A model generated the notes under the pieces. The model was not told the origin of the DNA, searched no databases, and saw only the letters and a program-made list of their open reading frames with translations. Below are positions 33,475 to 41,995 of a stretch of 53,450 nucleotides of DNA, piece by piece; position 1 is the stretch's first letter; each line of letters opens with the position of its first letter. The position numbers and the translations under genes are program-made. Source of the DNA: Candidatus Falkowbacteria bacterium (GTDB lineage: Bacteria; Patescibacteriota; Patescibacteriia; CAIXNZ01); the NCBI GenBank assembly GCA_016927685.1, contig JAFGMD010000004.1, positions 1 through 53,450 of the forward strand. Direction: 5' to 3'.

Positions 33475-34182
33475 ATGATGTATCTGGGAATGTTTTTTGT
33501 TATATTGGGTATGGCTTTTGCTATATTTTTAATGATATTTGCTATTGCCATAATATTTGACGATGGTGGAATATATTCTATTATTTATGGGTCGATTGGT
33601 CTGATTATCCTTCTTTCTTTATTTATTTGGACTGATACCGGGAATGGTATTGTAAAAAAAATTAATATTTTTCATAGAAATACACCAGCAGAAAATATTA
33701 GTAAGCGCCTTGATCAGTTAAATCAACTTAACTCGGGCTTACAACAGAAATTAATAGAAGTTAGGCAGCTGCAACGTGAATACAAAAAAGGTATAATTGA
33801 ACTTAAAAAAGAGATTTATGTAGAAAGCCAAAAGAATTCTATTGTTACTTATAGCCAAGCTGCAAGTAATGTAAGGATAAATTATGACCTTCAGCTGATT
33901 CAACGACGCATAGCTTTGATAAAAAAGATGGATGATACTGAGCTCCGATTAATAAACGGCATTGAGCAGGTACGCTTCATCAGTCTACAGACCCGAGATG
34001 ACTTGGGTATTGCCAAAGCATTTACGGGTAAAGAAGCTAAGCAATTGTTAAAAGATATTAATAAAACTATTGACGAATATTCGCCCGACTCCAAAGAAAT
34101 CAATCTTGATATTAATGAATCAATGCTTATCCCTCTAGAGCAGATATGGCAGTCGCTCCAAACCGAGATTAAAAATCAGTAA
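33475..34182 (+). CDS. TM-anchored helical (putative Snf7/PspA-like) family, paralogue A
   Basis: Start moved to ATG 33475 (SD); 2 TM then RINYDLQLIQRR..QTRDDL..EQIWQSL domain shared with 39061, 39951 and 40949. Confidence 0.8.
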   Translation: MMYLGMFFVILGMAFAIFLMIFAIAIIFDDGGIYSIIYGSIGLIILLSLFIWTDTGNGIVKKINIFHRNTPAENISKRLDQLNQLNSGLQQKLIEVRQLQREYKKGIIELKKEIYVESQKNSIVTYSQAASNVRINYDLQLIQRRIALIKKMDDTELRLINGIEQVRFISLQTRDDLGIAKAFTGKEAKQLLKDINKTIDEYSPDSKEINLDINESMLIPLEQIWQSLQTEIKNQ

Positions 34183-34188
34183 AAAAAT

Positions 34189-34219
34189 AAAAGTGCTCCA
34201 AAATTTGGGGCACTTTTTT
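34189..34219 (+). terminator. Intrinsic terminator
   Basis: aaaagtgctcca-aaatt-tggggcactttt. Confidence 0.75.
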
Positions 34220-34257
34220 TTATTTACTTCATATAAGTTTTGAGTTAAAATAGTAAT

Positions 34258-35328
34258 ATGTCTATCTATAAGGAAAAATTTAAACCATTGAAATTTCCGC
34301 GTGACGAGCAAAAACATGACCACATTATTGAATGGTGGTATTTTAATGGCAATTTAAGGACAAAAAATGGACAGAGCTTTTCCTATATGCACACTCTTTT
34401 TGCCACTAAGCCAAAATTAGTTAAAATTCCTTTTTTGCAAAATATTCCCCTAAAAACTCTTTACTTTTCACATTATCTATTAACTGATAATAATAAGCAC
34501 CAGTTTAAAGAAAAAATAAATCCCATTTGCTTGGTTGACGCAAACAGTTTCACTAAGCCCTTGCTTTGGGTACATTATGATAATACTTGCTTAATTGAAG
34601 AAAATAATTTATTTGAATATCATCTTGTCAATGATTTCGTTGATTTACGATTGAAGCAAATTAAAAAACCGCTTTTGGTTAATAAAAAAGGATTTTTAGA
34701 TTTAGAAGTAAAAACGACTTATTATTATTCTTTAACGCATTTAGAAACAAGTGGATTAATTAAGATGGGGGACGGTTGGCAAGAGGTTTCTGGCTTGTCT
34801 TGGATGGATCATCAATGGGCACAAACGCCTTTAACCAGCGATGATAAATGGACTTGGTTTTCTGTCCAATTAGAAAATAGGCTAGATCTGGTGATTTTTA
34901 TTTATGGCGATGAAATAAAAACTTATCATGCCAGCTTAATTGATGAACGAAATAAAATTTCCACAACTGATAATGTTCTAATCAGAGAAACAGGCAAAAA
35001 ATTTGTCAGTAAGCAAACTGGTGCGACATATAATTTGGAATATGAAATATTTTTACCGGATTTTAATATTAATTTAGAAGTAAATCCTTATAATAAAAAT
35101 CAGGAAATGATTTTCGGCACAATTAATTACTGGGAGGGCGGAGTCAGTATTTTAGGAAAAATAAATGGTAAAAAAGTAAGGGGTAGGGGATTTATGGAAT
35201 TAGTTGGCAGTCCTATGAAAAAAAGTTTAACCAATGTTTATTTACAGCAATTTAAAAGGGATTATTTAAATAAGGGTTTAAAATTAATATCCAAGGAATT
35301 TTTAGAAAAATTTAGAGCGTATAAATAG
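34258..35328 (+). CDS. AttH/CrtC-like lipocalin-fold protein (carotenoid 1,2-hydratase family)
   Basis: EWWYFNGNL, YYYS.THL, SWMDHQW, WTWFSVQL, YWEG, G.GFMEL; probably leaderless (TTTACT-N17-TAAAAT, ATG 7 nt later). Confidence 0.82.
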   Translation: MSIYKEKFKPLKFPRDEQKHDHIIEWWYFNGNLRTKNGQSFSYMHTLFATKPKLVKIPFLQNIPLKTLYFSHYLLTDNNKHQFKEKINPICLVDANSFTKPLLWVHYDNTCLIEENNLFEYHLVNDFVDLRLKQIKKPLLVNKKGFLDLEVKTTYYYSLTHLETSGLIKMGDGWQEVSGLSWMDHQWAQTPLTSDDKWTWFSVQLENRLDLVIFIYGDEIKTYHASLIDERNKISTTDNVLIRETGKKFVSKQTGATYNLEYEIFLPDFNINLEVNPYNKNQEMIFGTINYWEGGVSILGKINGKKVRGRGFMELVGSPMKKSLTNVYLQQFKRDYLNKGLKLISKEFLEKFRAYK

Positions 35329-35330
35329 TA

Positions 35331-35359
35331 AAAATAGCCGCTAGTATAGCGGCTATTTT
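35331..35359 (+). terminator. Intrinsic terminator (AGCCG family)
   Basis: aaaatagccgcta-gta-tagcggctatttt, perfect 13-bp stem. Confidence 0.85.
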
Positions 35360-35361
35360 AT

Positions 35362-35445
35362 TTGACTAATATTAGCATTTTTGATAAATTATGTTATTGA
35401 TAATAAAGGATTGCTATTTGACAAAAAAATATTGTAAATAAGGAG
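35362..35445 (+). promoter_or_regulatory. Promoter, boxA-like motif and SD of the J-domain operon
   Basis: TTGACT-N17-TAAATT; gctatttgacaa at 35413; AGGAGG at 35440. Confidence 0.65.
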
Positions 35446-39944: not shown

Positions 39945-39950
39945 CCTTCA

Positions 39951-40823
39951 ATGGATAATAAAAATATTTTTATTGTGGTTTTTGCTTATATTTTTAACAT
40001 TGGCTATATCGTCTTCATCTATTATTTTTTGCATAAGAATATTGTTAAAGATAAGTTTGTTTGGTGGGAAGCTTTAATAGTTTTTGTGGGAGGATTTATT
40101 GCCAGTTATTTAATGATATATGCTCATGGATATTATATTAAACAGATTGGTGGTTTAATTTATATTTTAGTTTTATTTGTAAGCTGTTATTTATTTATTG
40201 ATATTTTTGATTTGGTTGGTGAAAGAAGAGAGGCGGCTAAAGGTTCAATGGTAATTTTGAGCATTATTTTCATTGTTGGCTTAGGACTTTTGGCTCGGAA
40301 TGCTTATAACGATGGCAAAATATTCAACAAGCGTCAGCATCAACTTGAAGTCAAAGTCAAAGAAGTTAAAAAATTGAAGAAAGCCCTGGAGAAAAAAATA
40401 ATTGAAGTAAGAGACCTGAGATCTGAATACAGCAATTCTGTTGCAAATTTAAAAGGCGAAATTTTGGCAGAAAGCAGAGCCCATAATATTGTATATTATG
40501 ACCAAGCAATCAGAAATCAGCGTATCAGCTATGATTTGGTGCTTATTCAGCGCAAAAGAGCCTATATCATTAAACTTGATGAAATTTCAGTTCGCTTAAA
40601 AAGAGGCGTTGTGGAGCTGGAGTTCATACAGCGCCAGACAGAAGACGATGTCCGCTTGGTTGCAGTTCTTAAGAACGAGAAGGTTAATCAAATCATTTCA
40701 GATATCAATGAAGTTATTTCCAGGTACTTGCCTGATACATCAAAATTGGAAATAAATATTGATCCCTCTGAAATGCAGACACCTCAGCAGATATGGTATG
40801 AAATAATTCAAGAGAACCAATAA
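39951..40823 (+). CDS. TM-anchored helical (putative Snf7/PspA-like) family, paralogue C
   Basis: About 4 TM then AYNDGKIFNKRQH..RISYDLVLIQRKRAYIIKL..QTPQQIW. Confidence 0.82.
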   Translation: MDNKNIFIVVFAYIFNIGYIVFIYYFLHKNIVKDKFVWWEALIVFVGGFIASYLMIYAHGYYIKQIGGLIYILVLFVSCYLFIDIFDLVGERREAAKGSMVILSIIFIVGLGLLARNAYNDGKIFNKRQHQLEVKVKEVKKLKKALEKKIIEVRDLRSEYSNSVANLKGEILAESRAHNIVYYDQAIRNQRISYDLVLIQRKRAYIIKLDEISVRLKRGVVELEFIQRQTEDDVRLVAVLKNEKVNQIISDINEVISRYLPDTSKLEINIDPSEMQTPQQIWYEIIQENQ

Positions 40824-40838
40824 ATTTGTTTAAACCAT

Positions 40839-40872
40839 AAAGCCGTCGACTAAGTTTCGACGGCTTTTTTTT
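40839..40872 (+). terminator. Intrinsic terminator (AGCCG family)
   Basis: aaagccgtcga-ctaagtt-tcgacggcttttttt. Confidence 0.85.
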
Positions 40873-40873
40873 A

Positions 40874-40942
40874 TTGACATTAATTAGCAGATATGTTAAT
40901 TTAAGACATTAATTAAGATCTTTTAAAAATCTGTAAAGGAGG
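40874..40942 (+). promoter_or_regulatory. Promoter, boxA-like motif and SD of paralogue D
   Basis: TTGACA-N17-TAATTT (TG-extended); gatcttttaaaaat at 40917; AGGAGG at 40937. Confidence 0.7.
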
Positions 40943-40948
40943 TTTGTT

Positions 40949-41995
40949 ATGGATACAAGTCAAATCATAATTTTGTTTATTGCCCATTTAGCCACAATCG
41001 GTCTTCTCGTGTATGTAGCATATGCAGGGCTTTATAAATGGATTCTCGCTTATCGGAAAGTGTATTGGTGGGAATATATCATTGTTCTGATTTGGTGCAT
41101 GATATGCAGTAATATAATGGCGCTTATTTATGATTTTTATTGGAGCATTTTCTTCCTGATATTTTATTCTGTAATATTGGTACTCGGTTTTAAGCTTTTA
41201 GGGAAACGACAGATCGCTAAGCAACAGAAAATTGATAGCTACCTCAACCTTTCCATCCAAAGCGTAATATTGATAATCTTTGCGATTATTGTGGTTAACG
41301 GAGCTTATAATGACGGCAAGATATTTAATAAGCGCCAGCATGAACTCAAAACCAAGTTAAGAGAGGTTAAAGATTTAAAAAGCGCACTTACAGAAAAAAT
41401 TAGCGAGGTTAAGCAATTGAATAGTGAATACAGCGTTAGTATCAACGAATTGAAAGATGAGATAATCAGAGAAAAAGACGCTAAAAGTATAAAGAGCTTT
41501 AATCAGGCCATCGAAAATCAGAGGATAAACTATGACCTGGCCTTGATTCAGCGTAAAAAAGCTTATATCGTTAAGCTTGAAGAAATTTTGGCTCGTCTAA
41601 ACGAAGGAGTTATAGAGTTGGAATATGTACAACGCCAGAGTGAAGATGATGTGCGTTTGGTCCAGGTACTTAAAGATGAAGAAGCAAAAAAAATCATTGA
41701 AGGCATTAACGATGTAGTGGCGAAGTATCTTCCAGACGCAGCAAAACTGGAAATTAACATTGACCCTGAAGAAATGCAAACGCCCCAGCAAATTTGGGGT
41801 GAAATCGTTCAAACTGAAAATAAATCAAATCCAGAAGGAGAAGTTCAGGAAGGAGAAAGCGTCAGCGACCCTAATATCAAGCCAGATGATAATGAGACTA
41901 CTACTCAGGATAATAATCAGAATGATAATGCTGGCCAAAAAGGAACTGACATTGCTCCTAATGGAGATATGATTCGAAGTTTTGATCGTGAATAA
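40949..41995 (+). CDS. TM-anchored helical (putative Snf7/PspA-like) family, paralogue D, with acidic D/N/E tail
   Basis: About 4 TM then AYNDGKIFNKRQH..RINYDLALIQRKKAYIVKL..QTPQQIW plus a low-complexity tail. Confidence 0.82.
   Translation: MDTSQIIILFIAHLATIGLLVYVAYAGLYKWILAYRKVYWWEYIIVLIWCMICSNIMALIYDFYWSIFFLIFYSVILVLGFKLLGKRQIAKQQKIDSYLNLSIQSVILIIFAIIVVNGAYNDGKIFNKRQHELKTKLREVKDLKSALTEKISEVKQLNSEYSVSINELKDEIIREKDAKSIKSFNQAIENQRINYDLALIQRKKAYIVKLEEILARLNEGVIELEYVQRQSEDDVRLVQVLKDEEAKKIIEGINDVVAKYLPDAAKLEINIDPEEMQTPQQIWGEIVQTENKSNPEGEVQEGESVSDPNIKPDDNETTTQDNNQNDNAGQKGTDIAPNGDMIRSFDRE

Follow-up and report, generated by a model that had tools for sequence, protein, structure and literature searches.

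The window analysed here, a stretch of 53,450 nucleotides from contig JAFGMD010000004.1 of a Candidatus Falkowbacteria bacterium recovered from a sediment metagenome, encodes four paralogous membrane-anchored proteins (W1 to W4; Table 1) that belong to a large and undescribed family, in which a helical domain of about 165 residues follows an N-terminal anchor that varies from member to member. Computation delineates the family, the predicted fold of its domain, the anchors and a recurrent gene neighbourhood, whose most constant member is a second undescribed protein, the polytopic membrane protein memb271. On balance, the domain is probably an exported, membrane-anchored helical hairpin that works with memb271, and with a cytoplasm-facing set of J-domain, von Willebrand factor A (VWA) and transglutaminase-like proteins, as an envelope module. 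In such a module the anchor, be it two, four or six transmembrane (TM) helices, a single one, or a Sec, lipoprotein or pilin-type leader, would present the domain outside, where it may dock onto a disulfide-bonded ectodomain of memb271. Tandem paralogues could then form homo- or hetero-oligomeric helical assemblies, which the J protein, the VWA protein and the transglutaminase-like protein might assemble, regulate or turn over from inside, the whole acting perhaps as an envelope scaffold.

The same four proteins had originally been predicted to be integral-membrane ESCRT-III-like polymers. That reading holds for the order of the helices and does not hold for sequence, location and partners, so that the resemblance to ESCRT-III and PspA is one of helix order only and membership of the superfamily is unproven.

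A shared helical domain behind variable anchors

All four open reading frames (ORFs) are present on the + strand where the original prediction had placed them. The colinear domain that it had put at about 170 residues is found as well, as the C-terminal ~165 residues align without large gaps and with 42 invariant columns, and domain-only pairwise BLASTP among W1–W4 gave E-values of 3e-30 to 2e-69 at 36–64% identity (database size 1e8), W4 and W3 being 64% identical across the domain. This similarity is far beyond chance. The motifs named at the outset, L-x6-L-x2-K, TYEQA/YYDQA/SFNQA, RI(N/S)YDLxLIQR(K/R)xAxIxK and G..E.E(Y/F)...Q.xDD, are all there, and so are the EEVENLIDNINEII-type helix and the P..IW motif. 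The N-termini differ, as had been noted, with two hydrophobic helices in W1 and W2 and four in W3 and W4, and no pair of the N-terminal modules matches by BLASTP at E≤10; a WWE motif before TM2 is common to W3 and W4 and recurs in other members with four to six TM helices. The nearest homologues of W2, at 63–65% identity, come from metagenome-assembled genomes (MAGs) of Parcubacteria. For W1, a start at ATG 33475/33478 is likelier than one at the upstream TTG 33436, since the near-identical homologue P0013 begins MYLGMFF. Only W4 among the four carries, after the terminal I-W helix, an acidic low-complexity tail of about 55 residues rich in Asn, Asp and Gln (residues ~294–348, 41828–41992).

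AlphaFold2 (AF2) models were obtained for W2 (m13c8a478ce4c; predicted local distance difference test score, pLDDT, 92.7; predicted template modelling score, pTM, 0.79), with helices at 7–58, 63–68, 70–115, 122–143 and 158–167, and for W1 (mc1a3d7fc2b27; pLDDT 88.7), with helices at 8–57, 63–68, 70–117, 122–144 and 158–171. Both models agree on a hairpin (52 + 46 residues in W2) with a 6-residue helix at its tip, a 22-residue helix, a linker and a short terminal helix that carries the invariant I-W, which is the order of hairpin, helix, linker and terminal helix that had been foretold from the sequence. The domain is thus predicted to be a two-helix hairpin of about 7 nm, against which the third helix and the terminal I-W helix pack.

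A profile search for the distribution of the domain, suggested along with the original prediction, covered 1.84 billion cluster representatives (50% identity clusters) and revealed a family far larger than the four paralogues, with 590 proteins, each standing for a cluster, at E≤1e-3, of which 416 also pass E≤1e-10. A word-indexed search gave six close homologues only, from Parcubacteria MAGs and metagenomes. Among the 153 sequences retrieved (individual homologues are designated by P-numbers), nearly all have a hydrophobic segment shortly before the domain, and several architectures can be distinguished. These are two, four or six TM helices followed by the domain; one N-terminal hydrophobic segment and the domain, about 190 residues in all; a single segment, the domain and C-terminal TPR, ankyrin, or TonB_C and Lcl_C modules; and a long class of 450–760 residues, in which an acidic N-terminal region and one TM helix precede the domain and 24-residue LRR-like repeats follow it. 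LRR was rejected as the identity of the domain itself, as the LRR matches of profile A3 stem from the C-terminal 24-residue repeats of the Desulfobacterales long class.

The domain is without a model in Pfam, NCBIfam, PADLOC and PHROGs, and source annotations read "hypothetical protein" or are evident mis-annotations. The earlier statement that no description was known is consistent with this, and two ESCRT-III/Psp reviews contain none either (PMC11237479; PMC7619361). Sub-threshold matches, among them those to CTX_RstB, DUF3007, DUF6056, MinE, GldM_1st, FosB, the NGO1622 holin, LegC2/C7 and phrog_1244 were each confined to a single protein, did not recur and were dismissed; the idea that "LSLIQ" is a CpxP/Spy LTxxQ motif was dropped because its second position is variable and it has no Pfam signal. 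With a confidently predicted fold and no database model, the domain is a clear candidate for an entry of its own in domain databases and for study of its structure and biochemistry.

Named sources of the family are Candidatus Parcubacteria, Falkowbacteria, Magasanikbacteria, Desulfobacterales and one MAG labelled Gammaproteobacteria. The related loci, designated by L-numbers and compared by local BLASTP, represent 13 distinct places, some of them fetched twice (L004, L007 and L008 are the same place). L001 and L002 are from one MAG, and L009 and L018 are orthologous. A genome scan with alignment A2, which used one pattern, gave five loci. At least 14 paralogues are encoded in a single Parcubacteria MAG, LacPavin_0920_SED3_MAG_40_21 (L001 2903–7871 and L002 119–11006), seven of them in uninterrupted tandem (L002 520–6325), which is a large expansion for a genome of the Candidate Phyla Radiation (CPR). 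CPR genomes are very small, yet this copy number is reached and the genes sit in a fixed cassette with four others, which points to an important envelope function. In L003, a 98-residue ORF (9615–9911) that overlaps the 3′ end of the transglutaminase-like gene holds the C-terminal half of the domain only and is probably a truncated or frameshifted paralogue.

Location of the domain, memb271 and the gene cassette

Homologues of the window proteins carry several kinds of export signal. Classical n-h-c signal peptides are seen in P0035 (...YDALA|SN), P0056 (...SASHA|QQ) and P0146 (...PVFA|GS), and lipoboxes in P0043 (FLSAC), P0050 (LASC), P0052 (LLGC) and P0054 (LASC), of which P0043 is from a CPR bacterium, Candidatus Magasanikbacteria. 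Leaders of the type-IV-pilin kind are present in P0009 (GFTVIEL) and P0069 (GFTLVEL). By inspection or regular expression, dozens of homologues have a Sec signal peptide or a lipobox, and the window proteins have uncleaved anchors of two or four TM helices. Fusions indicate the same orientation. TonB_C is a periplasmic domain, and P0150 consists of a TM helix, the domain, TonB_C and Lcl_C, while in P0070 the cytoplasmic CheX domain, an acidic region and a single TM helix precede the domain. These signal sequences and fusions, extended to W1–W4 by homology, make it most likely that the domain lies outside the cytoplasm, at the outer face of the cytoplasmic membrane.

The distribution of charges points in the same direction in part of the family. 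In the 97 members with a single TM helix the net charge is +229 in the N-terminal flank and +61 in the C-terminal flank, a bias for N-in/C-out. In the 48 multi-TM members, when loops only are counted, 169 Lys and Arg residues lie opposite the domain vs 51 on the domain side, a pattern that 36 of these members follow and 4 do not. W3 (6 vs 2, loops 1 and 3 vs the N-terminal tail and loop 2) and W4 (7 vs 0) likewise favour a domain outside.

The most constant neighbour of the family is memb271, which has no Pfam, NCBIfam or PDB match. Its homologues adjoin family genes in nine loci, among them L002, L004/L007, L006, L010, L011, L016, L017 and L019, and a metagenome scan anchored on memb271 gave two new loci, both with family and transglutaminase-like genes. 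A homologue search with the memb271 alignment returned 7 proteins, none of them with a Pfam domain. The conserved C-terminal domain has the motifs KDYxFDPKTG and FFTPDGQPLAWYYQYPDGKIEIF. In 10 sequences its residues Cys125 and Cys138 occur together, in 3 both are missing, and no sequence has one without the other; a second cysteine pair in the same domain co-varies likewise. Such co-varying pairs suggest disulfides and hence an extracytoplasmic domain, so the soluble domain of memb271 probably lies outside the cell, on the side proposed for the helical domain. Two loci whose gene content differs from that of the CPR loci also have family and memb271 genes side by side. In L010 the family member beside the memb271 homologue is a lipoprotein form, and in L019 it has a Sec signal peptide. 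L010 (Logan contig ERR14788035_15160) is probably archaeal, because it encodes aEF-1beta (EF1_GNE) and CDP-archaeol-synthase-like genes, and the apparent presence of the family and memb271 in an archaeon, possibly of DPANN, suggests transfer between CPR and archaea.

The cassette, seen in L001/L002, L003, L004, L005, L006 and L016, comprises a J protein, a VWA protein, 2–10 family paralogues, one or two copies of a transglutaminase-like gene (two stand side by side in L002) and memb271. In the window, the cassette genes other than the family itself (35455–38752) sit between W1 and W2–W4; the original prediction dealt with the four paralogues alone. The J protein matches PF00226 DnaJ with 87 bits (cut-off 27.8) over residues 195–262 and NCBIfam DjlA PRK09430 partially (E 6.8e-12), and its homologues adjoin family genes in L001, L004/L007/L008, L005, L006 and L016. 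Directly after the J-protein gene in L001, L004, L005, L006 and L016 come VWA homologues with 49–54% identity; the window protein itself matches VWA_2 and VWA_4 weakly, below the Pfam cut-off. The transglutaminase-like protein matches PF01841 with 58.3 bits (cut-off 23) and PF04473 with 37.6 bits, and the Cys-His-Asp triad GVCGEM...NHAC...IDPAY is intact in it and in the L011 homologue; homologues adjoin family genes in L002, L003, L011, L016 and L017. The J protein must face the cytoplasm, and the charge distribution predicts that the transglutaminase-like protein probably does too, because it has the same type of anchor (no N-terminal charge, K-rich after the TM helix).

MetRS, CvpA and TatD genes lie upstream (30045–33150), and a UvrD/PcrA-type helicase with a PD-(D/E)XK domain is encoded downstream (42695–45706). 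This housekeeping layout around the cassette is common to L004/L007 and L006, which argues against a mobile island.

Resemblance to ESCRT-III and competing readings

The ESCRT-III superfamily is defined by a long helical hairpin, formed by H1 and H2/H3, that is followed by H4 and H5 (PMC7619361), and the helix order of the AF2 models of W1 and W2 fits this topology, as far as a prediction can. Structural searches, which had been suggested as a check, answered in two ways: in three Foldseek searches ESCRT-III-superfamily proteins stand at or near the top, but no match reaches an E-value of 1e-3. Against the PDB, chains of the CdvB2 filament hold the first 5–6 ranks for both models (E 0.02–0.09), and Vipp1, CHMP1B, CdvB and IST1 are within the top 50; against BFVD, a Snf7-family protein ranks third (E 6.7e-3; root-mean-square deviation, rmsd, 6.1 Å over 178 columns) and a PspA/IM30 protein sixth (E 0.029). 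TM-scores are 0.33–0.52 across libraries, the CdvB2 superposition has a TMq of 0.33–0.51 with an rmsd of about 17 Å, and comparable scores are given by BAR domains, SMC coiled coils, ciliary inner proteins, designed bundles, YscO, SLATT proteins and Borrelia BBH37.

At the level of sequence the resemblance disappears. No Pfam match to Snf7 (PF03357) or PspA_IM30 (PF04012) was found at E≤1 in W1–W4, nor are these models among the recurrent Pfam matches of the 112 full-length members or, at E≤5, of the 59 domain sequences, in which the recurrent weak matches (Tup_N, bZIP, ING and the like) are coiled-coil noise. The ESCRT-III/PspA profile signal that had been anticipated was not seen in profile searches of PDB sequences, which gave coiled coils only. 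The claimed likeness to CHMP4 motifs (RKKxYxxxL and others) yielded no alignment, and hhalign of the 59-sequence profile gave a probability of 0.2% against CHMP4B/Shrub/Snf7 and of 0.3% against E. coli PspA, which is only weak negative evidence because the templates are shallow (Neff 1–1.7). The CHMP4B, Shrub and Snf7 sequences were verified against PDB chains; the E. coli PspA sequence used matches database entries at 100%, and the best 120 matches listed for it are all ≥86% identical. For the alternatives TelA/XpaC, MCP, LemA and OmpH, too, the profile searches gave nothing beyond noise. Eukaryotic and archaeal ESCRT-III proteins have a basic N-terminal and an acidic C-terminal half, the dipole of autoinhibition. 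In 59 members of the family the net charge averages +2.2 over the hairpin and −3.0 over the rest of the domain towards the C-terminus, an asymmetry in the ESCRT-III direction but weak.

It is unlikely, although it deserves to be spelled out, that the domain genuinely belongs, as a very divergent member, to the ESCRT-III/PspA/Vipp1 superfamily. In that case it would polymerise via contacts between terminal helix and hairpin and stabilise or remodel the membrane. A permanent TM tether would replace H0, and the domain could lie either on the cytoplasmic face, where the TM-anchored J protein would recruit DnaK to remodel the polymer, or, without precedent, on the outer face. Beside the helix order and the structural ranks, this is favoured by the membrane association and by the several paralogues, which would permit composite polymers. 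A membrane J-domain protein is moreover a conserved neighbour, and a Hsp70/J-protein pair, CDJ2-HSP70B of Chlamydomonas, reportedly remodels Vipp1. In addition, 3 of 9 memb271 homologues match the PspC/LiaI-LiaF TM model PF22571 in the same TM region (E 0.007, 0.036 and 0.32), although below the cut-off; this match and the J-domain neighbour are leads for the idea, not tests of it. The main reason for not accepting an ESCRT-III-like mechanism is the probable export of the domain, since that mechanism acts from the cytoplasmic face (PMC7619361). The same 2025 review of bacterial and archaeal ESCRT-III-like systems makes no mention of transmembrane or periplasmic forms, and a survey of Psp partners makes none of Patescibacteria, DnaJ, vWA, transglutaminase or periplasm (PMC11237479). 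The family also differs from ESCRT-III, PspA and Vipp1 in its length (about 165 residues vs 200–250), in a second hairpin helix that is shorter than the first, and in the lack of H0, as integral, signal-peptide or lipid anchors instead of an amphipathic helix precede the domain. Neither the window cassette nor any of the 13 distinct places compared with it has a gene for a Vps4-like AAA+ ATPase, PspB, PspC, PspF or a Lia protein.

A still bolder version, which we hold to be improbable, places a genuine, permanently tethered ESCRT-III fold on the outer face of the cytoplasmic membrane. As many as 14 paralogues would then build composite polymers at the surface of ultra-small CPR bacteria and of a DPANN-like archaeon, and a PspC/LiaF-like polytopic partner, together with a module of J protein and Hsp70, would exert control across the membrane. 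To our knowledge, DPANN is the one archaeal superphylum reported to lack ESCRT-III. If this version is true, the ESCRT-III superfamily would include an exported branch that serves envelope repair, vesiculation or host contact, and if the weak resemblance is real at all, the family would be the first branch of the superfamily to be both tethered and exported. If the resemblance is not real, the family serves as a warning that a hairpin and two helices draw ESCRT-III fold matches without homology.

Comparison with other known systems gives partial likenesses. BBH37 of Borrelia burgdorferi (PDB 8s2f/8s2p), an outer-surface lipoprotein of paralogous family 12, is also an extracytoplasmic, lipid-anchored helical bundle of about 180 residues with paralogues, and gives the best superposition among the top PDB matches (TM 0.48, rmsd 5.5 Å over 160 columns), better than CdvB2; however, identity is 12–16%, E is 0.07–0.5, the host lineage is unrelated and nothing suggests shared partners. 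The PspC-PspA and LiaI/LiaF-LiaH pairs resemble the cassette in that a polytopic protein is encoded beside helical-hairpin proteins, but memb271 reaches only 11–16.5 bits with PF22571 (cut-off 27), has no PspC domain or Toastrack, and has a soluble domain with a co-varying cysteine pair, which is probably outside the cell. Operons of the MoxR-DUF58-TgpA type combine, like the cassette, a transglutaminase-like membrane protein, a protein of the vWA fold and a chaperone-type component. Here, in contrast, a J-domain protein stands where those operons have a MoxR AAA+ ATPase, the small transglutaminase-like protein has about 270 residues and one TM helix, and the family and memb271 are outside the described operon. 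A canonical MoxR-DUF58-Transglut_core operon does lie 3.5 kb upstream of the family genes in L009, on the opposite strand, which is a single observation.

SLATT domains are SMODS- and SLOG-associating effector domains with two TM helices, and the family genes might encode SLATT-like or other pore-forming effectors of a conflict (immunity/toxin) system, in which the helical domain would gate the TM helices. Two TM helices followed by a helical region are common to both, W3 has a weak match to Pfam SLATT_5 (E 0.0089, 15.8 bits) over TM3–TM4 and the first helix, four SLATT-annotated viral proteins are among the top 50 in BFVD (E 0.02–0.45), and tandem expansion of paralogues is typical of conflict genes. 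In the Desulfobacterales loci (L009 6519–10897 and L018 1499–4669), moreover, a pentapeptide-repeat and TIR gene is directly followed by a long-class and then by a short signal-peptide-class family gene; these loci are orthologous, however, and therefore count as one observation. The SLATT_5 match is below its cut-off of 29.5 bits, is confined to W3 and does not recur in 112 members, and there is no PADLOC match and no SMODS, SLOG or cyclase gene in any locus. Many members have no TM helix, let alone a pair, after cleavage of the signal peptide and therefore cannot be pores of the producer's own membrane, and the CPR cassette sits in conserved synteny amid housekeeping genes, all of which makes conflict effectors very improbable. 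It is scarcely easier to believe that the domain is no more than a coiled-coil stalk, a passive spacer without a specific partner that keeps variable C-terminal modules (TPR, LRR-like, Ank, TonB_C), or none, at a set distance from the membrane, its linkage to memb271 and the transglutaminase-like gene being local synteny of related CPR genomes. A spacer would not be expected to have conserved polar motifs (RIxYDLxLIQRKxAYI, G..EL.YL.R...DD, KY.P and P..IW) and a compact high-pTM fold, and a hairpin, which brings the chain back to its start, makes a poor one. Although the domain does lie between anchor and variable modules in some members, its weak profile matches are all generic coiled coils, and most cassette loci are from related Parcubacteria-type MAGs, the linkage to memb271 holds in the archaeal-looking L010 and in L019, whose gene content is unlike that of the CPR loci.

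The preferred reading, an exported hairpin domain in an envelope module, has its own difficulties. Among named structures, those of the ESCRT-III superfamily repeatedly rank best, and cytoplasmic partners such as the J domain and the VWA protein would be more simply explained by a domain inside the cell. The signal peptides and lipoboxes were identified by inspection and regular expression, not by SignalP or DeepTMHMM. The charge bias of the multi-TM members is gone (156 vs 163) once the count takes in the first 15 residues past the last TM helix, the K/R-rich start of the domain, so that the positive-inside rule is not decisive as sole proof of topology for these members, and W1 and W2, without Lys or Arg in tails or loop, are uninformative. 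The location of the window's own proteins is thus read from their homologues, and contact with memb271, oligomerisation and function are inferred. The sole metatranscriptome of the same study has no contig over the region. Whether or not the resemblance to ESCRT-III is real, the pairing of the family with memb271 and the transglutaminase-like protein supplies concrete partners that can be tested.

Coordinates and further features of the window

Table 1. Genes of the family and its cassette, and terminator-like hairpins, in the window
Feature	Positions	Strand	Description
W1	33475..34182	+	2-TM anchor, residues 1–~60; helical-hairpin domain, residues ~70–235
Hairpin after W1	34189..34217	+	Terminator-like; 13-bp stem, then T-run
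J protein	35455..36255	+	N-terminal TM helix (residues 2–18), C-terminal J domain; DjlA-like
VWA protein	36265..37098	+	No TM helix, no signal peptide
Transglutaminase-like protein	37109..37924	+	N-terminal TM helix, Cys-His-Asp core
memb271	37937..38752	+	Polytopic membrane protein, conserved C-terminal domain of about 150 residues
Hairpin after memb271	38954..38980	+	Terminator-like
W2	39061..39810	+	2-TM anchor; domain, residues 82–249 (nt 39304–39807)
Hairpin after W2	39815..39844	+	Terminator-like; stem and T-run
W3	39951..40823	+	4-TM anchor (WWE before TM2); domain, residues ~120–290
Hairpin after W3	40839..40867	+	Terminator-like; stem and T-run
W4	40949..41995	+	4-TM anchor (WWE); domain, residues ~126–293; acidic Asn/Asp-rich tail, ~55 residues
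Hairpin after W4	42000..42024	+	Terminator-like; stem and T-run

Each of the four paralogues had been credited with a promoter and a terminator of its own. Putative terminators can be recognised, as a G+C-rich hairpin and a T-run lie 5–16 nt past each of the four stop codons, and terminator-like sites are enriched, with 17 found vs 6.6 ± 2.9 expected from shuffles. Promoter-like sites (44 found vs 38.2 ± 5.5 expected) are at shuffle level, that is, without enrichment.

Between W1 and W2 the window also encodes a CrtC/AttH-like double-lipocalin protein (34258–35328; PF07143 and PF17186), whose counterparts in L003 and L006, 64–67% identical, are encoded a few kb away from the cassette. Downstream of W4, a gene at 42089–42688 encodes a protein of 199 residues, made up of a single TM helix at the N-terminus, a very acidic stretch and a small domain at the C-terminus, for which neither a Pfam/NCBIfam match nor a homologue in any related locus was found. 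Antisense to the VWA gene, on the − strand, runs a Leu/Phe-rich ORF of 202 residues (36607–37215), which is most likely spurious, a mere shadow ORF.

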